Assembly: GCA_947623725.1 (NCBI GenBank)
Contig: CANQHI010000005.1
Location: forward strand, 1 to 59,148
DNA: 59,148 bases
Reading direction: 5' to 3'
Origin: an uncultured Clostridia bacterium
GTDB lineage: Bacteria; Bacillota; Clostridia; TANB77; CAG-508
The notes under the pieces were generated by a model that saw only the letters and a program-made list of their open reading frames with translations, was not told the origin of the DNA and ran no database searches. Positions 7,353 to 58,878 of the stretch are shown here, in pieces. The translations under genes were made by a program, and so were the position numbers. The number at the start of each line of letters is the position of its first letter. Within the stretch, counting starts at the first letter, position 1.

Positions 7353-8792
7353 TTAATTGCTTTCTAATAAAGCATGATACTCTGTTGATTTTTTGTAGTT
7401 TGCTTCAACTTCTTTTTCAGACAATCCTTTACTATATAGCCTTAATGCATAACAGTTTAATTTTGAATAATTCCATGCATAATTTTCGTATTCTTCATTA
7501 ATCCTTCCAATTGTAAAACAATTAAAAGAATTTAAAAGTTCATTTGTGAAAATATCCCATTGTACTTTATTAAAATCTGCATCATACACTTTCTTACCAT
7601 TTATGTAACATTTATAACTGTAAAATTCTCCACTTTTATTAAAACTTGATCCATCACTATAAACCCCATTTTCACTATTCTTATTTTGACTCTTTGAAGT
7701 GTCCAATGTAATCGTTATGTAACAAGGTTTATTAGGCTCAAATTCAGTTTCTGATAAACTATTAACTACATTCCACTGGTACGATTTATGACAATAGTCA
7801 GACAATTCTCTACACTGTTTATATCCACCATTAACAGACCATTCTATACCTGGATTACTTGCATTTCCATTATTATGAACAATCCCAAATCTAAACCATG
7901 ACCACTCATTACTATCTTTAATTCCATAATAGAATAAACCATTACAATATCCATTAAACTTTTCATTATTAGAAATCCAATAATTATTTCCTAGGTTCCA
8001 ACTTCCATAAAATTCAAATGTAAATCCTTGTTTTGACAATGCCTCTTTTTGTTCTTGTTTATCATATTGTATTGTAATATAATCATCAACTCCATCAAAA
8101 TTAAATGATGTACTTGTTAATCCACTTTCATTTGTTCCTTCTTCACTAAAGTTATGTAATTCTACTCCTGTCCCTAATTGTTTCTCAATATCTTCTTTAC
8201 TTTGTCCTGTTCCTTTATCTATTATTGATGAATCTATATTTATTATTAAATTATCTTTTACTGCTAGCATATCTCCTGCTGACCATGATTTATATTTTCC
8301 TTCTTCTAATTGAATTATTTCTCCTGTTTCATAATTTACTAGCCAATTATAATTTGCATTTCCATATCCACTTAATTCTGTTCCTTTTTCTACATAATAC
8401 CAACCATTGTCATATTGTTTTCCAGTATTTTCTACTTTTACTATATGCCAATTATATGAATTTTCTATGTTTTTTTCTTTTAACTCATCTCCTAATCTTT
8501 CCGAGCTTACATTTTCTAAATATTTACCTAATTGTACCGAGATTACATTTTGTCCTAAATATTCTCTTTCACTCTCTAAATTATACTTTTCTACTGTTGT
8601 TTTTGCTCTTTTAAACAATCCATTTTGGCTTAAAGCTGTAGTTAAAGTTACTCCTGTTAATATTAAGAGTATTATTATCGTTATTACTAATGCTACCAAG
8701 GTGATTCCACATTCTTTATAATTTACTTTTCTCATTATTTTTTGCTTTCTTACTGATTCTTTTTTTATAAACTTTATTTTTTTATTCATCAT
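7353..8792 (-). CDS. Pilin-like-anchored protein, paralog 1, with a LamG/concanavalin-like C-terminal region
   Basis: N-terminus is ...RKVNYKECGITLVALVITIIILLILTGVTLTTALSQNGLFKRAK. It resembles a class III (prepilin) signal but has Ala, not Glu, at +5. FNFDGVDDYITI is a typical LamG-like motif. Start chosen at the ATG at 8792 after AAAAGGAGATTTT. Confidence 0.7.
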   Translation of the reverse strand: MMNKKIKFIKKESVRKQKIMRKVNYKECGITLVALVITIIILLILTGVTLTTALSQNGLFKRAKTTVEKYNLESEREYLGQNVISVQLGKYLENVSSERLGDELKEKNIENSYNWHIVKVENTGKQYDNGWYYVEKGTELSGYGNANYNWLVNYETGEIIQLEEGKYKSWSAGDMLAVKDNLIINIDSSIIDKGTGQSKEDIEKQLGTGVELHNFSEEGTNESGLTSTSFNFDGVDDYITIQYDKQEQKEALSKQGFTFEFYGSWNLGNNYWISNNEKFNGYCNGLFYYGIKDSNEWSWFRFGIVHNNGNASNPGIEWSVNGGYKQCRELSDYCHKSYQWNVVNSLSETEFEPNKPCYITITLDTSKSQNKNSENGVYSDGSSFNKSGEFYSYKCYINGKKVYDADFNKVQWDIFTNELLNSFNCFTIGRINEEYENYAWNYSKLNCYALRLYSKGLSEKEVEANYKKSTEYHALLESN

Positions 8793-9065: not shown

Positions 9066-10320
9066 TTAATTATCTACTACTAGCTTAAAACTAACAACAC
9101 CATCTGTTTCATTTTTTTCTAATCTATAACCACTTGATGTCAAATCAATAGAAACCATTGGTCGAAGTGAATTTTGTGCACCAACTTCATATCCGATGTG
9201 CAGTACATACATTCGCACCTGCAACTCGATATGCATCAGTAAAATAGAATACAGCTTGTAATCCAAAGTCACAATTATCATCATATAAATGAACATAACG
9301 CCCTGCCAAGTAATAACTAACACCAAAATAATCTAAACCATCCTCTTTTTTTAATAACAAATCATAATATTTAGGATTTATAAATTCACTTTGTCTATTA
9401 AGATAATCATGTCCATAGAATGATTCTCTAAATGTTAAATTACTATTTCCCGTTTCATTATTAGTTTTATATCCATTCTCTTGTTCCCACATCAGGCATT
9501 CTTTATCACTTCCATTCTCTGTACCATCAACCTCATTATATTCATACATCCATTTTGAATCATATTCTTCCCACATTTTAGGATATTTTAGACTTGTATA
9601 TGTTGTTTTACTTCCTCCAAAATGCATCTTTCCTTCATCATTTTCAAACCAACCACTAGGATCATACTTATATTTTCTATAATCATAATTGCTTACCTTT
9701 TGTATATCACTTCTTCTTAAATTTGCTACACTTATTCCATTTTTCATTTTACCATTTTCATCATATTGTCCATAACATTGTCTACATATCTCATTTATTG
9801 CCCATACGCCATTATTATATCCTGTTGCTCCTCTTAATGTTAAGGTTTCATTTGTTGGTCTACTTGATATTAATCTTATTGTCTTTGTATATTTATTATA
9901 ATCCCAGATTCTCCAATCCAAGTCTTCTGTTGTAAATTTTTGATCTCCATTTTCTTCTGCATTTACAATTGTATTACCATCATTATCTTGTTGTGAAGTT
10001 AATCCTGATGTTATACTTTTTATTATAAATGAACTGGTATCATTTTTTTCTATTGGTTCATATCCTTCTACATAACATCCTACATAGTCATTATAATCTA
10101 TTGATATCTCATCTAACTCTTCTGCTATACTATCCAATGCTAATTGTTCTTGTTTTTCTGACTCTTGATATTCTTTTACTGCCTTTTTTGCCATTTTAAA
10201 CAATCCATTTTGCCCTAATGCTGTAGTTAAAGTTACTCCTGCTAGAATCAATAATAATATTATTGTTATTACCAAAGCTACCAATGTAATACCTTTTTCT
10301 TTATAATTTACTTTTCTCAT
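9066..10320 (-). pseudogene. Pilin-like-anchored protein, paralog 2, frame broken near 9193-9195
   Basis: Same N-terminus (MRKVNYKEKGITLVALVITIILLLILAGVTLTTALGQNGLF). Frame A stops at 9187. Frame B (9066..9326) supplies the family C-terminus ...NSLRPMVSIDLTSSGYRLEK..., which matches paralog 3. Removing one base at CAT-CGG-ATA joins them. Confidence 0.7.
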
Positions 10321-14690: not shown

Positions 14691-14726
14691 AATTATCATT
14701 CCTTTCTTTATATAATTCATTAATTA

Positions 14727-14854
14727 AAAGATAAATATAGTTATTTTTTCATGCCTTGTTGTCGCTGAAAAGTGATAAATCACTTTTCGCTCCATTCGCG
14801 GGCTTCGCCCTTGAGCGCTACGCGGCTATTCAAAAATAACTATATTTATCTTTT
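14727..14854. repeat. GC-rich insert flanked by 23-bp perfect inverted repeats in the mcsB-clpC spacer
   Basis: 14727-14749 (aaaagataaatatagttattttt) is the reverse complement of 14832-14854. The interior is far more GC-rich than its surroundings and contains the palindrome GAAAAGTGAT-nn-ATCACTTTTC. Confidence 0.85.
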
Positions 14855-20385: not shown

Positions 20386-21204
20386 TTAATAACTTGTCCA
20401 ATAATAATATAAAATATTATTATCTATATCATAAACTCCTATTTCCCATCCGGTTGCTTCTTCATCTGTAAAATGATGTTTTTTATATTCATCACTTGTT
20501 CTGCACACTTTTTCATAGTGATAATATCCATTTTCTATTGAAAGTACTTCTTCATTGTATTCAAAATCATCTAATTTTTCATCTTCTAGTCTATTCTTGT
20601 TCCACTTTGGACTTTGTTCTAATGTTTTTATTACTTCTTTTCCTTGTTCATCTGTAAATTGATATGTATAATAATCTAAACCATCACCCTGAGGACCACC
20701 TCTTACACTATATATTTCTCTTGTTTTATAATTATTTGTTTTTATACCTAAAATCTCACTATAATTTTTATGATGATTAAAAGGACCATTTTCAAAATAA
20801 TATAGTTTTGCATTTTTTAAATCAAATATGGCATATCCCTTCTCATAATAATATAAATCTTCTCTATCTATTTCTACTACATAATCATCTCTAATTTCAT
20901 AAAACTCCTTCATTATATATTCATAATATTTATTTTTACTCCATATATCACTATTTTCTAATTGTTTTCTAAAAGTATCCATACTATCACTATAATAGTT
21001 TTTTATTTTATATACCTTATATTTTCCAAACCTGTCAAAACCATATTTCGTACAATATTCTATATTAATATCTTCTATTTGTAATCCCAAGTTTTTATAA
21101 TCTGTGTCACCTTTTATTTTATAAAAAAATATAGATAAATGAGAAATAATTATAACAATTATAATTATTAATAATATATATATAATTATCTTTTTATTTT
21201 TCAT
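20386..21204 (-). CDS. Hypothetical N-terminally anchored protein
   Basis: 272-aa ORF with one TM. Tyr/Glu/Lys-rich with no recognisable domain. Confidence 0.5.
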   Translation of the reverse strand: MKNKKIIIYILLIIIIVIIISHLSIFFYKIKGDTDYKNLGLQIEDINIEYCTKYGFDRFGKYKVYKIKNYYSDSMDTFRKQLENSDIWSKNKYYEYIMKEFYEIRDDYVVEIDREDLYYYEKGYAIFDLKNAKLYYFENGPFNHHKNYSEILGIKTNNYKTREIYSVRGGPQGDGLDYYTYQFTDEQGKEVIKTLEQSPKWNKNRLEDEKLDDFEYNEEVLSIENGYYHYEKVCRTSDEYKKHHFTDEEATGWEIGVYDIDNNILYYYWTSY

Positions 21205-21230
21205 ATTTTCTCCTTGTTTAATAAAAGTTA

Positions 21231-22304
21231 TTATTTTATTACAAAATTATTCTTTTGTACTTTTATTGTAACTTTATATGACTTTATAACTCCATATTTA
21301 CTAGAAACAACTCCAAAATTGTTTAGTATGCTTGAAAATATACTAATTAGTAATGATTTATTAGATGTTACATATTCTTTTAAATCTGTAAAATCTGTAA
21401 AATCATAAGTATCTTCAATTACCATATTTACTTTCCAAGTATTATCTAAGTTTTTTTCAATTTCTATACTTGTTGGAGAACCATGTATAGCAAATAATAA
21501 ATCTTTATTATTAAATTCAATTATACAATCTTCATTATTTTCACTATTATCCTTAAATTTATCTTTTTCACTACAATATTTTTTTATAAGTTCTTTTATT
21601 TTATTATCAAATTCTTCACTTTCTAGTATATCTTCAATAACTTCTTTATCATTAATCAATAAATCTTGTGGTTGCTTTCCAAATAAAGATAATGAATGCG
21701 ATAATAATTTAGCTGAAAGTTTCATATTTGCTAATAATCCTCCAACAACCACAACTTGCCAAAATGTATATTGCATTGCATAAAAAACGGTATAAGCAAT
21801 AGGAGAGTTTTTCTTAGTTAAATCAAATATAAAACTCATACTTTTTATAAAGTTCTCTGCTACATCTTTATCTACTTCTTCCCAATTAGTTTTTTTAGCT
21901 TCTTTTAATAATTCATTAAATTTTTGTGTATAATTAAACAATTTGTATATTTCATTTAGTGAAAACGACATCGTCTCTATTATATTTTTTGAAAAAGTTT
22001 TGATATTTTTTATATCATTAGAAACTTTTTCTTTTACATCATTTAAAGCTTCATAGTTCATCATGTTTAGATACGTTAATGCAATATATTTTTGAGCTAA
22101 AACATATTTTTTCTTTTTACTAAGAAAAAACTTATGATTTTTCCATGCTATTCTAGTACATAAATACAATTCTTTATTCCATATTATTCTAGGTGATTTA
22201 GCAAATCCCAATAATTCATATAAATTATCTAGGCATCCTCTTCCAAACATTTCATATTTATAATTATATGGTCTATTACATAATAAACATCTTTTTTCTT
22301 CCAT
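21231..22304 (-). CDS. Hypothetical protein
   Basis: 357-aa ORF with an N-terminal CLLCNRP...GRGC motif. No family recognised. Confidence 0.5.
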   Translation of the reverse strand: MEEKRCLLCNRPYNYKYEMFGRGCLDNLYELLGFAKSPRIIWNKELYLCTRIAWKNHKFFLSKKKKYVLAQKYIALTYLNMMNYEALNDVKEKVSNDIKNIKTFSKNIIETMSFSLNEIYKLFNYTQKFNELLKEAKKTNWEEVDKDVAENFIKSMSFIFDLTKKNSPIAYTVFYAMQYTFWQVVVVGGLLANMKLSAKLLSHSLSLFGKQPQDLLINDKEVIEDILESEEFDNKIKELIKKYCSEKDKFKDNSENNEDCIIEFNNKDLLFAIHGSPTSIEIEKNLDNTWKVNMVIEDTYDFTDFTDLKEYVTSNKSLLISIFSSILNNFGVVSSKYGVIKSYKVTIKVQKNNFVIK

Positions 22305-22327
22305 TTTTAATACTCATTTCTTACCAT

Positions 22328-22423
22328 TTATTTTTGTTTATTCATTATATTTGATATTTGTTCTTTTAACTCATTTATATAGTTTAATATCTTTGTTAAT
22401 ATTATATTATCTTTACTTTTCAT
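22328..22423 (-). pseudogene. Truncated HEPN/DUF86-like toxin remnant (31 codons)
   Basis: Its ATG overlaps the MNT stop. Translation MKSKDNIILTKILNYINELKEQISNIMNKQK resembles the N-terminus of DUF86 HEPN partners of MNT, then stops. Hand-translated. Confidence 0.4.
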
Positions 22424-22721
22424 ATACTATTACTCCTGTTCTTTCTATTTCCTTTTCAATTTTAGAATTTTTATTTATTTCTATTTTCTCTATTACATCA
22501 ACTTCTTTATTTAATTTTTCTTGTATCTTTCCAACTATTGCATAAAATTTTAATCCTTTAACTTTTCCTTTACTATCTAATAGTATATCTATGTCACTAT
22601 TTTGATTTGGATTTTTCTTCGCATATGATCCAAATAATATCGCTTTTTCAACTTCTGTATTACTAAGTATTTCATATAATATTGCTTTTATTTCATCAAT
22701 TGAATATATTTTTGTTGTCAT
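22413..22721 (-). CDS. Nucleotidyltransferase-domain protein (MNT-type antitoxin-like)
   Basis: ILFGSYAKKNPNQNSDIDILLD is a minimal nucleotidyltransferase motif. Confidence 0.75.
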   Translation of the reverse strand: MTTKIYSIDEIKAILYEILSNTEVEKAILFGSYAKKNPNQNSDIDILLDSKGKVKGLKFYAIVGKIQEKLNKEVDVIEKIEINKNSKIEKEIERTGVIVYEK

Positions 22722-22851
22722 TTTTTTCACACACCTTTCTTTTTATTATTATATCATATTTTATAATATAATTTCTTTTTATAAAGTTCTGATACACTTT
22801 TATTTACTTATTTTCAATTATTTTTTATCTCTTTTCTTATCTTACTATTTT

Positions 22852-24048
22852 TTAATTTATTACACTAGAAATAGGTATAATATAATTCTTTTCATCTATT
22901 TTCATTAGTTTATCATATAAACAAATAATTCCACCATTTCCTATTTTCATATTTGTTTTTTCAAGATGTTTAAAACTTTTTATCATATCTTTTCTAGGAT
23001 TTGCTGTTTTCTTTATTACTAATGGGTATAATGTGTTATTCTTAAAAATAATTAAATCGATTTCTTCCGTTTCTTTATTTCTAAAATGTGATATTTCTAA
23101 ATTTATTCCTTTATTTTCATATGACTTTATAAGTTCTGAAATTACATACGATTCAAAAAAATTGTCTGATAAATCACTCAATTGTAATGTTCTTGCACTT
23201 TCCCAATTTGCTAGATAACAAGCTAATCCTAAATCCATAAATATTATTTTAGGCATATGAGTAAGTCTTTTTATTTTATTTGATGAATATGGTTCTAATA
23301 AATATACAAGTCCTGTACTTACTAATATTGAAAACCAATCTTTAATTGTATTTACTGAAACTCCTACATCATTTGCAATATCTGAATAATTTAAATTTGT
23401 ACCTGTTCTTATTGCAACAGCCCTCATAAATTTTTTAAATGCCTCTACATTGCCTATTTTTTTTATATCTTTTTCTATATATTTGTCAATATATGAATAA
23501 TAAAAGTCATTTCTATCCATATTTTCTATATCATATAATTCTGGCATTCCTCCATTGAAAATTCGTTCAAATATTTCATTTACATCTATATATTTATTCT
23601 GTTTCAGATTATCTGGATCAAAAATTTCTTTTCTTGTATTTCTCATAATTTCGCTATATGTAAAACTATTCATTTTAACTATACCAGCTCTATTTGCAAG
23701 TGATTCTGTAACATTTTTCATAAGATCAAATAATTGAGAACCAGACAACCAATATTGTCCTCTTGTCTTATCCTTATCAACTTTCATTTTTATATATGGA
23801 AGTAGCTCTGGAGCATATTGTACTTCATCAATAAAAAGTGGTGCAGGATATGAATCTAAAAATATTTTTGGATTTTCTTTTGCTTCTCTTCTTAAGATTT
23901 CATCTTCTAATGAAATTTTAGTCATATTTTCTGGTATTACACTTTCAAGCAAAGTTGTTTTTCCAACTTTTCTTGGTCCTGTTACCACTAATACTTTGAA
24001 TGTATCATTAATTTTTTTTATTCGTTCTTTTACCTCTCTTTCATACAT
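22852..24048 (-). CDS. AAA-family ATPase with a DUF4143-like C-terminus
   Basis: VVTGPRKVGKTTLL Walker A. 398 aa, an architecture common in mobile or accessory DNA. Confidence 0.7.
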   Translation of the reverse strand: MYEREVKERIKKINDTFKVLVVTGPRKVGKTTLLESVIPENMTKISLEDEILRREAKENPKIFLDSYPAPLFIDEVQYAPELLPYIKMKVDKDKTRGQYWLSGSQLFDLMKNVTESLANRAGIVKMNSFTYSEIMRNTRKEIFDPDNLKQNKYIDVNEIFERIFNGGMPELYDIENMDRNDFYYSYIDKYIEKDIKKIGNVEAFKKFMRAVAIRTGTNLNYSDIANDVGVSVNTIKDWFSILVSTGLVYLLEPYSSNKIKRLTHMPKIIFMDLGLACYLANWESARTLQLSDLSDNFFESYVISELIKSYENKGINLEISHFRNKETEEIDLIIFKNNTLYPLVIKKTANPRKDMIKSFKHLEKTNMKIGNGGIICLYDKLMKIDEKNYIIPISSVIN

Positions 24049-24093
24049 TTTTTTATTCCCCCAAATAACATATATTTATATTTTATATTTTCG

Positions 24094-24159
24094 TTGCAAA
24101 AAAGTCAATATTATTATTGCAAAAAAGTCAATATGTTTGCTTAAAAAAAGTCAAATATT
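24094..24159. repeat. Three direct repeats with 23-bp periodicity upstream of the ATPase gene
   Basis: ttgcaaaaaagtcaatat at 24094 and 24117, and ttgcttaaaaaaagtcaaatat at 24137. The GTCAA cores lie at 24104, 24127 and 24150. Confidence 0.8.
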
Positions 24160-24259
24160 ATATTTCATATTAGACATTTATTTCATTACAAAAAAAAATT
24201 TAAACTACTATACTTTTTAATTTATAGCAATTTAAATTTTTCCATATATAAATTATATT

Positions 24260-25189
24260 TTAAGCTAAAATTTTTGCTTCAATATTTCTAATTTTATATT
24301 TTCCATTTTCTTCAATAAAATCATATAAGCTTTTATCTAAGCTGTCACTGTTTTGTTTTAAATCAGTTGTATAATAAAAATTAATTTTGTCTATTTTTAC
24401 GCCATTTGTAACTAAAGCTTTAAAAGTTTCTGCCATGTGTCTTTCATCTTCACATATAAAAACAAGTTGTGGTATCGAAATGAAATCTGAATCTCCAGGA
24501 TTAAAATTATCATAAAAATCTTTCCATAAATTCATTCTTTCGACTAATCTTTTTTCCCAATTTTCATTTCTTCTAACTACTTCATATACAAAACTTATTT
24601 TTCTATTATTTGCAACTAAATCAATACTTAATGTAGGTTTAAACTGTTTACTAAGAGTTTTTGCTTGAATTACTGGTTTTAGTTTATAATCTGAAAAAGT
24701 TTTTACTTTTCTCATATATGCAATAACTAATTGATTTCCAGCAAGTTTTTTCTTTATCATTTCAACAGGTTTTGCATTATCACTTGGTTGCCATTTGCAT
24801 TCTACCTCTCTTGATGTAAGCAAATATTTTCCCATCTTCTCCATGCAGTAAACTCTATATATTCCACTTCCTTCTGGTGATGTAAAATAATATCTTGTAA
24901 GTATTTTGCTTCTAATTAATTGGTCTAATTTATTGTTTAATTTATCTTGAGTTTTTATATCTGCTTTTTGAAGTTGTAATAATTGAAACATTTGTCTTGA
25001 TGTTAAAAATTCAAATTTATTTATTAATTCTAAAATTTGAAAATGTATTTCATTTATATGTCCTACATTTATCTTCTGTATAATCTGATTCATTGAGACA
25101 TAACCGTCTTTTCCATCAAATACTTTTATCTCCCCTTCTCTCATTCTAAAAGGTGAGACTGTTGTTTTAATTTCATTATCTGCTAACAT
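24260..25189 (-). CDS. Replication-relaxation family protein (plasmid/ICE-type)
   Basis: 309-aa ORF whose N-terminal winged-helix-like region and overall pattern resemble the replication-relaxation family. ATG follows AGGAGGAAAAA. Confidence 0.55.
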   Translation of the reverse strand: MLADNEIKTTVSPFRMREGEIKVFDGKDGYVSMNQIIQKINVGHINEIHFQILELINKFEFLTSRQMFQLLQLQKADIKTQDKLNNKLDQLIRSKILTRYYFTSPEGSGIYRVYCMEKMGKYLLTSREVECKWQPSDNAKPVEMIKKKLAGNQLVIAYMRKVKTFSDYKLKPVIQAKTLSKQFKPTLSIDLVANNRKISFVYEVVRRNENWEKRLVERMNLWKDFYDNFNPGDSDFISIPQLVFICEDERHMAETFKALVTNGVKIDKINFYYTTDLKQNSDSLDKSLYDFIEENGKYKIRNIEAKILA

Positions 25190-25323
25190 TTTTTCCTCCT
25201 ACAAAAAATTATTTATAGTTTTAGTACTATTTTTTAATTACATCAATTAATTTAATTAAAAATAGTATACTCACATTTTTATTATATCACTTATGTCAAC
25301 AAGATACAATACTTATATTTATT

Positions 25324-26097
25324 TTAATTTTCTGATACAATACTTAGTTTTATTTTCTTTTTCTCAGGAATGATTTTTTTTACTTTTACATTTACATTTT
25401 GACCATATTTTATATCACTATTATATTCACACAATCCAACTAAATTAGGCTTAAGTTCAATAAAAATTCCATCTTTATTTTTTGTATATTCTTTTGCTAT
25501 TCCTTGAACAATGCTTCCTTCTTTTATATCTTTAATATTTTCTTCCCAACTGCCAAGCATATCTTTATATGATAAATAAAATTTTTTATTTTCTTTATCT
25601 ATTTCTTTTATTTTTACTTTTATTTTTTGGCCTATTTTCAATTTTTCTTCTGGTGATTTCATTCTTGATACTGAAATATCATTGATATAAAGTAGACCTG
25701 TTGAACCTCCACCTATTTCAACAAAGGCTCCATAAGGTTTTATATTCCTTACAATTCCATTAACTACATCTCCTTCTGATAATTCATTTATCACCCAAAA
25801 AAGACTTTCATCTTTTACTTTTTTTCTTGATAAATTACATATCTTCTGAGCTTCATTAACTTTATCTACTTTAAACTGAATATAATTATTTCCTTTTAAA
25901 ATTTCGCCTAATTCATCACTTGGAACTATTCCCTTTATGCTATTTCCTAAATCAATATAGGCATTATGCTTTCTATCAATATTAGTTATCTTTCCACTTA
26001 ACGTAATGTTGTTATCTGAAGCATTTTTTAAATCTTTAATAGAATATTTAATTTCTTCTTGATTCCAGCCTTCTGGAATAAATCTTTGGTATATCAT
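25324..26097 (-). CDS. S1 RNA-binding domain protein
   Basis: Repeated S1-like segments (GDVVNGIVRNIKPYGAFVEIGG, GSIVQGIAKEY...GIFIEL). Confidence 0.7.
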   Translation of the reverse strand: MIYQRFIPEGWNQEEIKYSIKDLKNASDNNITLSGKITNIDRKHNAYIDLGNSIKGIVPSDELGEILKGNNYIQFKVDKVNEAQKICNLSRKKVKDESLFWVINELSEGDVVNGIVRNIKPYGAFVEIGGGSTGLLYINDISVSRMKSPEEKLKIGQKIKVKIKEIDKENKKFYLSYKDMLGSWEENIKDIKEGSIVQGIAKEYTKNKDGIFIELKPNLVGLCEYNSDIKYGQNVNVKVKKIIPEKKKIKLSIVSEN

Positions 26098-26170
26098 ATT
26101 TTCTTCCTTCGTTTTTATAATTATATATTTAATTAGAAGTTATCAAAATTTCTAGTAGCTTCTAAGAAGT

Positions 26171-26653
26171 TTATCCTAAAAAACTATATCCCCAATCACT
26201 TTTAAAATTGTGAACTAATCTCAAAATATCTTCATACATGTTCTGATTATTTTTTCCATATGGATATTCTTTTTTTAGTTCATCCTCATTAGATATTATC
26301 CTATCTTTTAAATCATGATATACATTTTTTTCAATTACAAATGGTGATTTTTTCATCATTTCATGATCGATTTGAAAATATAGTATATTAACTGCACTCC
26401 AAATGTCAAAAGCAGATCCATTTATTGCCTTTATAATTGCATTTTGATATTCATTTAAAATATTTACATCTTTATTTTCTTCATATAATGCATAAATTCC
26501 ATGTGGTATAATTCTTGTCCAATCTGTTGGAACATCTACTTGAGCGTCTAATACAGGAAGATTATATCCATTTCTCCCTGTTAAAAATTCAAATAGCTCA
26601 CCTGATTCAAAAGCTTTTTTAGCATTTTCTTTTATACTATTAAATTGTATCAT
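26171..26653 (-). CDS. Hypothetical protein
   Basis: 160-aa ORF with no recognisable family. Confidence 0.5.
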   Translation of the reverse strand: MIQFNSIKENAKKAFESGELFEFLTGRNGYNLPVLDAQVDVPTDWTRIIPHGIYALYEENKDVNILNEYQNAIIKAINGSAFDIWSAVNILYFQIDHEMMKKSPFVIEKNVYHDLKDRIISNEDELKKEYPYGKNNQNMYEDILRLVHNFKSDWGYSFLG

Positions 26654-34909: not shown

Positions 34910-36202
34910 CTAATTATATTTAATTAATTTGAATTTCACAGTTTCATCTTCTTCAACTTTTTCTAAATCGTATCCACTAGATATTAAGTTGATACTAACT
35001 ATTGGGCGAAGTGCACTTCCCTGACACCAAACCTGATTCCAAGTCTCAATCATAGACCTACCTCCTATATCTTCCGAAGTGATAAAACCATTACTCCCCT
35101 CTACCGTACATATACCAAACTCACCATGATCCACAAATAAATGAGTATATCGACACGAAAGCCAGTAAGTCATATAATGCTTGTCAAATAAGATATCCTT
35201 ATATTTCTCATCTTTGAATTCTTCGTTCGAATATTTATGCCCGATACTACTCGATTGTTTTAGTTCCACATTATCACAACTTTTTTGGGCTGTATCAACT
35301 TTCATATTATCATTTTCTAGTTCCCATATCAAGCCTTCTTTATCTTCTCCCACTCCTTCTCCATCTTTATATTCATAAGACCACTCTTCATCTTTTTCCC
35401 ACATTACTGGATAATAACAATTACTTTCATATTTATGAGTACTTCCATAAGATATATCTCCACTTGAATCATATTGCCACCCATTCTCTCTATTTCCAAG
35501 CTTATGCTTATACTGGGTAAAATCATAAGTACTTACATTTTGTATATCACTTCTTTTTAAATTTGCTACTGATATTCCTCTTTTCATTTGATTATTTTCA
35601 TCATATTGTCCATAACATTGTCTACATATTTCATTTACTGCCCACACTCCGTTATTATATCCTGTTGCTCCTTTTAATGTTAATGTTGCCTCTGTTGGTT
35701 TATCTGATATTAATCTTATTGTTTTTGTATATTTATCATAATCCCAGATTCTCCATTCTAATTCTTCTGTTGTAAATTTTTGATCTCCATTTGTTTCTAC
35801 ACCATCAATTGTATTACCATTTTCACCTTGATTTGAAGTCACTCCTGATGTTTCACTTTTTATTATAAATTCACTTCCTGTTGTTTTTCCTGTTGGCTCG
35901 TATCCTTTTACATATGCTCCTACATAATCATTATAATCTATTGATATTTTTTCCATCTCTTCTGCTATACTATCCAATGCTGATTGTTCTTGTTTTTCTG
36001 CCTCTTGATATTCATTTACTGCTTTTTTTGCCATTCTAAACAATCCATTTTCACTTAATGCTGTATTTATTGTTATTCCTGCTAATATTAATAGTATTAT
36101 TATGGTTATTACTAGTGCTACTAATGTGATTCCTTTTTCTTTATGATTTATTTTTCTCCTATTGTGCATTTTATTTTCTTTTACATTATCCTTATTTTTC
36201 AT
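34910..36202 (-). CDS. Pilin-like-anchored protein, paralog 3 (intact counterpart of paralog 2)
   Basis: ...HKEKGITLVALVITIIILLILAGITINTALSENGLFRMAKKAV... with C-terminal YWLSCRY...ALRPIVSINL. ATG follows AAAGGAGAACTAAC. Confidence 0.75.
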   Translation of the reverse strand: MKNKDNVKENKMHNRRKINHKEKGITLVALVITIIILLILAGITINTALSENGLFRMAKKAVNEYQEAEKQEQSALDSIAEEMEKISIDYNDYVGAYVKGYEPTGKTTGSEFIIKSETSGVTSNQGENGNTIDGVETNGDQKFTTEELEWRIWDYDKYTKTIRLISDKPTEATLTLKGATGYNNGVWAVNEICRQCYGQYDENNQMKRGISVANLKRSDIQNVSTYDFTQYKHKLGNRENGWQYDSSGDISYGSTHKYESNCYYPVMWEKDEEWSYEYKDGEGVGEDKEGLIWELENDNMKVDTAQKSCDNVELKQSSSIGHKYSNEEFKDEKYKDILFDKHYMTYWLSCRYTHLFVDHGEFGICTVEGSNGFITSEDIGGRSMIETWNQVWCQGSALRPIVSINLISSGYDLEKVEEDETVKFKLIKYN

Positions 36203-36317
36203 GTTAGTTCTCCTTTTTTTTATTTTTTACTTTTGTTTTATTTTATATACCTTAATTTGAAATTTTTATATTATGCATTGAATTATAATATTATGTTATA
36301 TTATTTCATTTGAAATA

Positions 36318-36346
36318 ATTTTATCAATACTAAAGTATTAAGTCAA
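36318..36346 (-). promoter_or_regulatory. Promoter-like element between switch L3 and gene 3
   Basis: The minus strand has TTGACT, a 17-nt spacer and TAAAAT with an upstream TGn. The same block is conserved at 58850-58878. Confidence 0.45.
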
Positions 36347-36372
36347 TATTAAACAAGACTTTACTTCTATAC

Positions 36373-36569
36373 TTTTTATTAAGTAATAAACTTAATAAAA
36401 AAGCTATAAATTTTATAATCCATATATTTCAACGAATTAATAAGATTCATAACTTTTATTTTTTACTAATTTGTAATAATTTTCTTTATCTATATTATTG
36501 CTTAACTGCTTATATTTATTATATAAATTTATTTATACTATTTTTATTAAGTTTATTACTTAATTATTT
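36373..36569. promoter_or_regulatory. Putative invertible segment (switch L3)
   Basis: Site 36373-36401 is TTTTTATTAA/GTAATAAAC/TTAATAAAAA. Site 36541-36569 is TTTTTATTAA/GTTTATTAC/TTAATTATTT. They form a 24-nt perfect inverted repeat. Promoter-like TTGCTT-18-TATAAA lies at 36498-36527 (+). Confidence 0.55.
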
Positions 36570-36786
36570 TTTTCTGTAATTTTTGTTACTTAAAATTAAA
36601 TTCTAATCTTGTTTTCAGTAAAAAAATCAAATTATACTTTAAAACTTAAAAATTATATCAAATTGATATAATTATTTTTTTTATTTAACATTTATCTGTA
36701 TATTTTTTCTTAATTTGGAAATATTAACTATAAAATTGTTTAGAAGTACTTACATCTTCTAAAAAAGAAAGGATTTTAGTTTTATT

Positions 36787-36999
36787 ATGGGTATTGAAAA
36801 ACATATTCAAGTTACAGGTAAATCAACTGTTTCATGGAAGGACGCAATTGTTCAAACTGTTGAGGAGGTATCAAAAACAATTAATTTTGTAACATCAATT
36901 AAGATTCTTGAACAACGTGCAAAAATAACCGTAAATAAAATAACTGAATACTATGTTGATTTAGATATTACATTTATGGTTGAACAAAAAAATTCATAA
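36787..36999 (+). CDS. Dodecin-family protein
   Basis: 70 aa. KHIQVTGKSTVSWKDAIVQTVEEVSKT...ITEYYVDLDITF matches the dodecin pattern. Confidence 0.7.
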   Translation: MGIEKHIQVTGKSTVSWKDAIVQTVEEVSKTINFVTSIKILEQRAKITVNKITEYYVDLDITFMVEQKNS

Positions 37000-48703: not shown

Positions 48704-49543
48704 TTAATCTATTAGCTTTTTTAATTCATTTTCCTCTATTCCAACTAATTCTGATATATAACTAATATCTTTTCCTTCTTTAATTAATTTTTTTGCTATT
48801 TCTAACTTTCCTTTTTTATAACCATATAGTTCTATTGAATGTTCATCTCTTATTGCTTTTTCTCTTAAAAATTGCAATCTCTCCATCTTCTCATCTTCAC
48901 TTAATTCTTTTACTGTTATTACACATTTTTCTATTTCTTTATTTTCTTTCATTATCTCCTTAACCTCCTTTGAGTTCGGATTATCTAGAAATAGCATCCA
49001 TTGTGCTTTCTTATTTTTCTTGTCTTTTTCATACTCTTTGAGTGCTTTCCTTAAATTTATTATATTTATTTCTATTAGCTCTGTCAATATCTTTTCACGA
49101 TTTTTCGTCTCTATTAGTTTCCACTTTGTTTCCATTTCATCTATATCTTTTAGTTCTTCTATTTCAAAATCTATTATTGCTATTAATACTGTCCTTTTTA
49201 CATTTTCATATGGCTCTCCTCTTTTAAATTGATCTGAATACAGTCTTGTTGCATAATATAATATTCTCTCTATAAAATTTCCTTTATTTAATAATTGTAC
49301 TTCTACATCTACTTTCTCTTTATTATTAATTTCCAGTTCTAAGTCTAATATTCCTAATTTATCATTCGGTCTATTTCTTATTAATTCTTTATCTTCATTT
49401 ATTTTTATACTTTCTATTTTTTCTTCTAATAGTACTTCTGCAAATGCTTTCGTTATTTCTGGATTGTTTTTACTAAATAAACTTTGAAAAACAACATCTA
49501 TCTTTGGTATTAATAAATTATTTTTTCCATTTGTCATAGGCAT
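48704..49543 (-). CDS. Rpn/YhgA-like PD-(D/E)XK nuclease family protein (putative transposase-like)
   Basis: IPKIDVVFQSLF...LGILDLELE...VDVEVQL...YYATRLY pattern. Confidence 0.7.
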   Translation of the reverse strand: MPMTNGKNNLLIPKIDVVFQSLFSKNNPEITKAFAEVLLEEKIESIKINEDKELIRNRPNDKLGILDLELEINNKEKVDVEVQLLNKGNFIERILYYATRLYSDQFKRGEPYENVKRTVLIAIIDFEIEELKDIDEMETKWKLIETKNREKILTELIEINIINLRKALKEYEKDKKNKKAQWMLFLDNPNSKEVKEIMKENKEIEKCVITVKELSEDEKMERLQFLREKAIRDEHSIELYGYKKGKLEIAKKLIKEGKDISYISELVGIEENELKKLID

Positions 49544-57799: not shown

Positions 57800-58792
57800 T
57801 TAATCTTTGATTGCAGATTTTGGAATCGAAATTACAGGTCGTACACCTTCCTTATTATGGTCAAACGTAGCATTATCGAAAGTCCCTATTATACAACGTA
57901 TTGTACACACATATTTATAATTATTATCATTATTATTATCATTACCTCCACGTGCTGCCAACCAATAACCCCACACATCGTTCGTATCACCTAGAAAAAA
58001 AACCTTGTTACCCAAAATAGCTTCATTTCTTACATATACGCTAAATTCTTCACTTTCCTCACCTATTTTATACTTAACCTGCTGAGAATCGTCTTTTATT
58101 ATTGTTAACTTATCTTCTACATTACTTCCATATCTTTCATTATACGCACTTTCTAGCTGTTCTGCAGTTGGACCTCCTGCTGCTGTTACTTCTACCTCTA
58201 TCCCTTTTTCCTTTAATGCCTTTTTAACTCCATTTGCAATGCTTGTCCAATTACTCGCTCCAGTCAAATAATTTATTAATTGCTCTCTATTACCACTTAT
58301 AACATTCCCATACACTACAATTCCACTATGCATTATACCTTTTACATATGGTATTGCATTTTCTTCTAAATAGTCTGAATATATAAAATATACTTTCCCT
58401 TCACTTTCATCTGTATAATAATATTGCCAACCATGTTCAAGAACTTTACCGTTTACTATAACATCACCTAAGTTTACCGTTTGACTATCGTCTGGTTTGT
58501 TGTCTACGTTTTTTGGTATTTCTATTTTTTCTTCTGATGGTGGTACCGGTGGCTCTGGTGTTTTATCTCCATCTACTATTTTGTCTATCTCTTTTTCTAC
58601 TTCTCCTAATTTTTCTGCCTCATCTGATTCTGATTCCTTATAATTTTCTCCTGCATATTTTGCCCTTTGAAATAGTCCATTTTGTCCTAGTGCTGTTGTT
58701 AATGTTACTCCTGCTAATATTAATAGTATTATTATTGTTATTACTAATGCTATTAATGTTATTCCTTTTTCTTTATAATTTTCTTTTCCCAT
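57800..58792 (-). CDS. Pilin-like-anchored protein, paralog 4
   Basis: MGKENYKEKGITLIALVITIIILLILAGVTLTTALGQNGLFQRAK... with C-terminal YWLAARG...EGVRPVISIP. ATG follows AAGGGGGAAAATCAAAAG. Confidence 0.75.
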   Translation of the reverse strand: MGKENYKEKGITLIALVITIIILLILAGVTLTTALGQNGLFQRAKYAGENYKESESDEAEKLGEVEKEIDKIVDGDKTPEPPVPPSEEKIEIPKNVDNKPDDSQTVNLGDVIVNGKVLEHGWQYYYTDESEGKVYFIYSDYLEENAIPYVKGIMHSGIVVYGNVISGNREQLINYLTGASNWTSIANGVKKALKEKGIEVEVTAAGGPTAEQLESAYNERYGSNVEDKLTIIKDDSQQVKYKIGEESEEFSVYVRNEAILGNKVFFLGDTNDVWGYWLAARGGNDNNNDNNYKYVCTIRCIIGTFDNATFDHNKEGVRPVISIPKSAIKD

Positions 58793-58849: not shown

Positions 58850-58878
58850 ATTTTATTATTTATAAAGTATTAAGTCAA
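58850..58878 (-). promoter_or_regulatory. Promoter-like element between switch L4 and gene 4
   Basis: The minus strand has TTGACT, a 17-nt spacer and TAAAAT. It is homologous to 36318-36346. Confidence 0.45.

Follow-up and report, generated by a model that had tools for sequence, protein, structure and literature searches.

In the Bacteroides fragilis capsular polysaccharide invertons (Mpi) and at E. coli fimS (FimB/FimE), scattered promoter-bearing segments with shared repeats are inverted by a recombinase acting in trans. Mpi is a serine recombinase whose repeat sequences differ from those described here, and fimS has 9-bp repeats with adjacent recombinase genes. The core sites of tyrosine recombinases follow a common layout, 13-8-13 in loxP and FRT and 11-6-11 in dif, in which an asymmetric spacer of 6-8 bp is identical between partners. 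A general scheme of invertible promoters that control surface structures has been described (PMC2784873, PMC10403206). The cmr switch of C. difficile (Cdi6) lies upstream of cmrRST, and is inverted by RecV. Its invertible promoter, TSS2, is active in one of the two orientations, and a fixed start, TSS4, lies between cmrR and the right repeat; alone TSS4 is inactive, and it needs autoregulation by CmrR (PMC8844915). At cwpV there is no promoter within the 195-bp invertible region, the promoter lies upstream, and approximately 5% of the population is ON (PMC2784873).

The window (the whole stretch of 59,148 nucleotides analysed here) comes from a low-GC spore-former and carries spoVA genes, spo0A-like genes and ribosomal operons. 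Related DNA was found in genomes of uncultured Clostridia that had been assembled from gut samples of rabbits, chickens and humans. Four homologous elements, L1 to L4, are present in the window, each upstream of a minus-strand paralog, and more were found in related gut Clostridia assemblies (Table 1). The two sites of L3, the element studied here, had been read in an earlier note as TTTTTATTAA, GTAATAAAC, TTAATAAAAA at 36373-36401 and TTTTTATTAA, GTTTATTAC, TTAATTATTT at 36541-36569, forming a 24-nt perfect inverted repeat. Both sequences read exactly as claimed, and the repeat, which extends to 34 nt at 91% complementarity, lies 170 nt upstream of the gene 3 ATG. L3 has the arrangement of an inverton, that is, inverted repeats around a short intergenic segment beside a regulated gene. 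Five loci in the window carry perfect inverted repeats of 19 nt or more around a loop of 60-400 nt, compared with none in 40 Markov-1 simulations, and the site motif had 10 matches in the window where 0.06 were expected, so the 26% GC content of the genome does not account for the L3 repeat. L3 is well defined in sequence, and we take it as truly belonging to a family of invertons in gut Clostridia that had not been described before. We also noted a perfect 23-nt inverted repeat (AAAAGATAAATATAGTTATTTTT, 14726-14748 and 14832-14854) that flanks an 83-nt GC-rich segment in the mcsB-clpC spacer; it is present in one copy, matches no Rfam family and may represent another inverton, a MITE or a structured RNA.

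Table 1. Features of the L3 locus and of related switches. Positions are those of the window except where a contig is named; promoters and hairpins are predicted.
Feature	Position	Strand	Description
Paralog 3 (gene 3)	34910..36202	-	430 aa; pilin-like N-terminal transmembrane helix and globular domain
Gene 3 leader	36203..36311	-	about 110 nt from predicted P_fix start to ATG; RBS AAGGAG at 36210-36215
Block shared with L4	36312..36372	-	includes AGAAGTAAA and TTGACTTAATACTTTA; shared with L4 (58844-58904) and partly L007
P_fix	36318..36346	-	TTGACT, 17 nt, TGa, TAAAAT; outside the inverted repeats, 26 nt from proximal site
Gene-proximal site (both arms)	36373..36401		+ strand reads TTTTTATTAAG (36373-36383), spacer TAATAAA (36384-36390), CTTAATAAAAA (36391-36401)
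Perfect inverted repeat	36378..36401 / 36541..36564		24 nt; 139 nt between arms
Hairpin and U-run	36399..36457	-	long, AU-rich; gene-sense strand; U-run merges with proximal site arm
Putative invertible interior	36402..36540		139 bp; homologous to L1, L2 and L4 interiors by alignment
Conserved interior motif	36471..36483	+	TTGTAATAATTTT; in L1, L3, L4, L002 and L007; near-unchanged in L084
Pint	36498..36527	+	TTGCTT-18-TATAAA; points away from gene 3, toward distal site, as assembled
Gene-distal site	36541..36564		inner arm TTTTTATTAAG, L3 spacer TTTATTA, truncated outer arm CTTAAT
Palindrome and T8	36648..36687	+	between switch and dodecin; terminator-like; z -2.3 in window, -4.5 in L083 (about 1655-1690)
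Sister switch L1	8843..9034		spacer CTTTTTA; upstream of paralog 1 (7353-8792, minus)
Sister switch L2	10347..10564		spacer TTTTTAG; 163-bp interior; upstream of paralog 2 (9187-10320, minus)
Sister switch L4	58905..59098		spacer CTTTCTA; upstream of paralog 4 (57800-58792, minus); own P_fix copy 58850-58878
Spacers of switches elsewhere			L007 CTTTTTA; L010 TTTTATA; L079 TTAAATA; P0014 locus TTTTTAC
Sister-family switches	L008 1990-2188; L071 743-952; L075 1940-2152		

Read from the interior outward, the sites follow the formula TTTTTATTAA(G/T), 7 nt, (C/A)TTAAT, with the second arm completed (…TTAATAAAAA) at the gene-proximal site and the distal outer arm truncated in most switches examined. 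The architecture is thus 11-7-11 (arm, spacer and arm, in nt), with arms common to all switches, and it shows the inverted arms and the asymmetric, partner-identical spacer of 6-8 bp that characterise core-type sites of tyrosine recombinases. At L3 the distal spacer is the reverse complement of the proximal one, and partner spacers match perfectly in all eight listed switch types, around constant arms. The likeness to loxP, FRT and dif, which lies in the 11-7-11 layout and in spacers that match in every pair, is one of site geometry only, and the L3 distal site, unlike those sites, is without most of its outer arm. As with Mpi and fimS, each segment of the L3 family appears to control a different surface structure; unlike them, these switches keep their arms constant around a 7-nt spacer private to each, and the targets are single pilin-like proteins without a PDB fold match.

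No recombinase gene was found in the window or beside the related loci. The recombinase is probably of the tyrosine type and encoded outside the window; because no such gene was found, the type suggested by the site geometry is a matter of resemblance only. An ORF at 21231-22304 with a weak Phage_int_SAM_6 match was rejected as a candidate, as it has no catalytic domain, no NCBIfam match and no R-H-R-Y tail. A stretch of lower GC content (20386-26653, 22-24%) encodes a nucleotidyltransferase, an AAA/DUF4143 ATPase, a weak Replic_Relax match and ORFs without assignment, with no recognisable recombinase; this island may be a mobile-element remnant. A gene of the PD-(D/E)XK 'Rpn-like' nuclease/transposase family (PF12784) was also noted at 48704-49543 of the window, and another, assigned by N-terminal resemblance alone, at 1244-1891 of contig L010, approximately 400 nt from the switch there. 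The only integrase seen was borne on a prophage, in contig L103.

Between the sites, the L3 cassette is predicted to fold on the minus (gene-sense) strand into a long hairpin of -16.5 kcal/mol (z -4.6), compared with -4.9 kcal/mol on the plus strand. Across L1, L3 and L4 the gene-sense fold is significant (z -4.6 to -6.9), with orientation dependence in L3 only: z is -6.9 on the gene-sense strand and -6.2 on the other in L1, and -6.9 and -6.8, respectively, in L4. The loop carries a conserved (A/G)TTGAAA motif. A classical terminator scan fails these hairpins, whose stems are almost wholly A-U, and at L3 we regard the hairpin with its U-run as a putative terminator-like insulator. The suggestion in the earlier note that the invertible part may insulate against read-through fits with the position of this structure, which abuts the proximal site on the gene-sense strand. 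We considered whether the TTGAAA loop might serve as the -35 of a gene-facing promoter in the assembled orientation, and rejected this because L3, L002, L079 and L084 have no usable -10; a plausible -10 is present in L1, and L4 and L007 have one only at 19-nt spacing. The conserved interior motif (Table 1) could be an accessory-protein site or a UP-like element.

Near the distal end of every switch, at the same position, there is a sigma-70-like or extended -10 motif, a predicted promoter that faces away from the gene. It has the form TTGnnn-17-TGnTAtAtT in L1, L2, L4, L007, L010, L079 and the P0014 locus, and TTGCTT-17-TGC-TATAAA in L103; the L3 version, Pint, is the weakest of the set, without the TG and without a T at -7. 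That the invertible part could add or remove a second promoter, as had been proposed, is compatible at sequence level with this conserved interior promoter facing away as assembled. Beyond the distal site, the earlier note had placed a dodecin gene at a distance of about 220 bp on the plus strand, and we measured 222 nt to its start at 36787 (Pfam E = 7.6e-17). It is unlikely that Pint drives dodecin, because the terminator-like palindrome and T8 lie in between and dodecin occurs without any switch in other strains. The same palindrome also bears a minus-strand TGATATAAT extended -10 that is conserved in the related genome.

On the other side of the cassette, a promoter scan recovered the minus-strand TTGACT-17-TAAAAT that had been pointed out between the proximal site and gene 3, with a score of 10/12 and a TG extended -10; we refer to it as P_fix. 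The surrounding block, described earlier as roughly 45 nt conserved with L4, proved to be real and somewhat longer (61 nt), with 46/61 ungapped identities (75%) between L3 and L4 and both hexamers in the same register, 26 nt from the proximal site, at the two loci. Only three copies of the block were found among all loci fetched (L3, L4 and L007, which is L4-like), and in L007 the hexamers are degraded, so promoter function alone does not account for the block being conserved. The P_fix hexamers at their 17-nt spacing, in the form TTGACT-17-TA(A/T)AAT, occur upstream of rplM (40219) and minD (4787) and upstream of 12165 and 24108, and promoter-like matches of this strength are approximately 2.7-fold enriched in intergenic DNA. 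Given this housekeeping-type form and the intergenic enrichment, P_fix is probably a working sigma-A promoter. The promoter-like block is genuine, with the hexamers of rplM and minD, but it is not part of the basic design of these switches: it is absent from L002, L084 and L103, which have the same sites and spacer as L3. In L002 and L084 the RBS directly follows the site, and L103 has a different leader of about 90 nt. We also noted that the octamer TATTAAGT, the inner part of the site arm (36377-36384), recurs at 36336-36343 in the P_fix block, 41 nt from the proximal site and overlapping the -35 and spacer of P_fix; the recurrence may mark an accessory half-site for recombinase binding, or it may be chance in AT-rich DNA.

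The gene 3 leader owes part of its length to a 53-nt tandem duplication (36238-36271 and 36291-36324). It has no attenuator-like fold better than shuffled sequences (z -0.4) and no Rfam match, and a riboswitch or attenuator in the leader was rejected on these grounds. In a blastn search within the window the sole clear relative of this leader was that of L4 (E = 1e-12), and because the block is also absent from the L3 orthologs, we conclude that L3 acquired an L4-type leader and probably gained P_fix secondarily along with it. An origin of the block as a decayed switch duplicate was rejected, since local alignments were at the AT-rich background (z no higher than 3.2 before multiple-test correction). 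The block also resembles the invertible promoter of L008, a member of a sister family described below (z 3.0-4.7), which could reflect mere shared promoter consensus. On balance, we lean slightly towards the view that the L4-type leader supplies switch-independent transcription at L3, in which case L3 and L4 would be default or tunable members of the set. Six switches, L1, L2, L002, L010, L079 and L084, have short leaders with 8-60 nt between site and RBS, and are without any other promoter because there is no room for one.

A fixed promoter between repeat and gene, as in L3 and L4 where the P_fix motif is a predicted second start between the repeat and the start codon, has a precedent in cmr TSS4 (PMC8844915), and the promoter-bypass twist of L3 is in that sense already known. 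L3 would share with cmr a short upstream invertible promoter element, a fixed start between repeat and start codon and a recombinase encoded elsewhere, and both belong to AT-rich gut clostridial lineages. They differ in that P_fix has near-consensus -35 and -10 hexamers, the L3 target is a structural surface protein that cannot autoregulate, the c-di-GMP riboswitch is absent at L3 (no Rfam match), and the L3 sites are compact (11-7-11), with several switches sharing the design, each with its own spacer.

The paralog proteins share a pilin-like N-terminal helix, KEKGITLVALVITIIILLILAG, and the family of paralog 3 has more than 3800 homologs in metagenome-assembled genomes of gut Clostridia. Paralog 3 lacks the combination of a class III signal peptide (G followed by (F/M)TLxE) and an N_methyl match that defines type IV pilins and pseudopilins: it scored 18.3 bits against the N_methyl model, under the cut-off of 21.2, and has Ala in place of Glu at position +5; the paralog proteins in general stay under this threshold and lack the Glu. 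The controlled protein matched neither a Pfam nor an NCBIfam family. An AlphaFold2 model of paralog 3 was confident, with a pLDDT of 86.6 and a pTM of 0.79, and a PDB fold search with the globular domain gave no match at E<0.001. Between close relatives the controlled gene has only about 54% amino-acid identity within flanking DNA that is 92-95% identical, and a divergent gene beside conserved flanks is typical of phase-variable surface antigens. In two IMG/VR contigs, L103 (1504-3202) and L104 (27-1590), a siphovirus-like prophage with a tyrosine integrase, a CI-like repressor, ERF and Gp157 is inserted directly after the coding region for the conserved N-terminal helix (…LILAGITNI and stop), with an L3-type switch upstream; phage integration may use the gene family's conserved 5′ coding segment as an attachment site. 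A further rearrangement was seen in Logan contig L084, where, comparing 785-2713 with window 34910-36999, switch and paralog are reversed relative to dodecin and lie beside ruvA, approximately 40 nt of distal flank having moved with them; switch and gene appear to move or rearrange as a module.

Taken together, we think it likely that L3 is a recombinase-driven invertible promoter-terminator cassette (inverton), one of at least four in this genome. Two core-type sites, with 11-nt arms TTTTTATTAA(G/T) around an asymmetric 7-nt spacer, bracket the 139-bp cassette, in which a long hairpin with a U-run is combined with a predicted sigma-A-type promoter, Pint. The assembled state would be OFF, with Pint directed away from gene 3 and the hairpin and U-run towards it. 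Following inversion (ON), transcription from Pint would cross the proximal site and enter gene 3, with the hairpin placed upstream of Pint as an insulator. P_fix would give switch-independent transcription in either state, making L3 modulated or default-ON rather than a strict ON/OFF switch. Should P_fix be constitutively active, gene 3 could not be gated by the switch. We counted this against the promoter-switch reading, along with the uniform orientation of the assembled copies, the failure to find a recombinase gene in the window or beside related loci, the A-U stems that fail the terminator scan, the weakness of Pint in L3 and the degraded P_fix hexamers of L007.

An alternative is that L3 is static, a fossil that no longer inverts, or never did, and consists of a fixed insulator and a divergent promoter, with gene 3 transcribed from P_fix. 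The resemblance of P_fix to a normal housekeeping promoter would suit such an element, as would the failure to find a recombinase gene in the window or beside related loci. The pattern of conservation argues against it. An L3 switch with the same spacer is present in a syntenic contig of GCA_947588945 (L002/L083), in L084 and in the two IMG/VR contigs, and between the window, L083 and L084 the sites are identical at 53/53 nt (proximal 29/29, distal 24/24), next to a fast-evolving interior with just 63-69% identity between orthologs; identity in the adjoining intergenic DNA is 91.5% among the same three. A fossil would likewise not be expected to show partner spacers that covary in eight switch types. 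Its outward Pint has no consistent target, running antisense into neighbours at L1 and L2 and into a terminator before dodecin at L3, and the short-leader paralogs would be left without any promoter. In L103, where the prophage truncated the gene, the distal site has a 1-nt insertion; this fits relaxed constraint, in a single case.

Orientation bears on both readings. All of approximately 20 assembled copies, representing eight spacer types and including the P0014 locus from six samples and contigs from the same strain as the window (in which the L2 switch is identical), are in the OFF orientation, and no flipped copy was found among them. Assemblies report the majority state, so this uniformity is expected if each paralog is ON in a minority of cells, and it is equally expected of a fossil element, which it favours to that extent. 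Exact-protein contig look-ups returned no record for paralogs 2, 3 and 4 or homologs P0002, P0003 and P0005, and look-ups via dodecin, the 133-aa neighbour of L2 and P0014 returned only the same orientation. A metagenome scan with an orientation-neutral switch pattern gave three chance matches. Scanning viral contigs yielded two further L3-type copies, both OFF and beside a prophage, and with a general site pattern about 120 chance matches and no new paired site. The sequence diagnostic of a flipped L3 is CTTCTATAC, TTTTTATTAAGTAATAAACTTAATAAAAA and TAGTATAAATAAATTT in contiguous order.

Both orientations were found in a sister switch family, which counts further against a static element. Its switches, upstream of homologous genes in other assembled genomes, have arms TTCTTAGAGT/ACTCTAAGAA, 7-nt spacers and interiors of approximately 140-160 bp. 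The L008 interior matches that of L075 only when inverted (score 54, z 7.7, 0/300 shuffles; same orientation z -0.4), and the L008 promoter, TTGACT-17-TGATAAAAT, faces its gene, with those of L075 and L071 facing away. The existence of this family points to recombinases and their sites having diversified together in specificity within the gene family. In view of these observations we consider a static L3 unlikely, and the invertible cassette remains our preferred reading.

A second alternative follows the documented cwpV mechanism (PMC2784873), in which a fixed promoter beyond the distal site transcribes through the cassette and inversion only makes or removes a terminator. L3 and cwpV both have repeats just upstream of a variable cell-surface protein gene and a terminator-like hairpin with a U-run at the repeat/interior junction when OFF, and both systems are mostly OFF (about 5% ON in the cwpV population, all assembled copies OFF in the L3 family). 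The strong strand asymmetry of the L3 hairpin would suit this mechanism, and the conserved minus-strand TGATATAAT near 36656-36664 is a candidate upstream promoter, a gene-sense extended -10 approximately 95 nt upstream of the distal site that is conserved in L002. However, the hairpins of L1 and L4 are as stable on one strand as on the other, so flipping them would not relieve termination, and the upstream context is not conserved in L084 or other switches. The cassettes also contain a conserved promoter, unlike cwpV; the set of features that defines a cwpV-type switch (no interior promoter, a fixed upstream promoter and a terminator in one orientation) is not what these switches have. We therefore regard this mechanism as quite improbable at L3. 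The idea that the repeats are MITE terminal inverted repeats or a long-range RNA stem rather than recombinase sites draws on the several copies with similar ends and interiors in one genome, but is hardly credible, given that every copy has the same place and polarity upstream of one gene family's paralogs instead of the unrelated positions of a MITE, that there are no target-site duplications, that the central 7 nt differ between copies and match within a copy, the opposite of transposon ends, and that no single predicted transcript spans both repeats as assembled and there is no G-U variation.

If L3 and its relatives are invertible cassettes, as we favour, the private spacer of each switch could allow one trans-acting recombinase to flip each without cross-recombination. 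More speculatively, and with considerable doubt, a single recombinase might run an addressable bank of at least four switches per genome, with eight spacer 'addresses' seen so far and combinatorial phase variation of a large, hypervariable family of surface proteins, in which L3 and L4, having acquired a consensus fixed promoter, would be expressed by default and tuned in level or 5′ UTR isoform, not gated. For the field as a whole L3 is an incremental addition to the inverton catalogue, and for annotation it explains why these paralog genes have no promoter of their own. The combination of constant arms with private spacers is a clean natural example that predicts how one recombinase runs many independent switches, and L3 and L4 offer a natural within-genome comparison of gated and promoter-bypassed members. 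If active, these elements would be the phase-variation machinery of a very large protein family in low-GC gut Clostridia.
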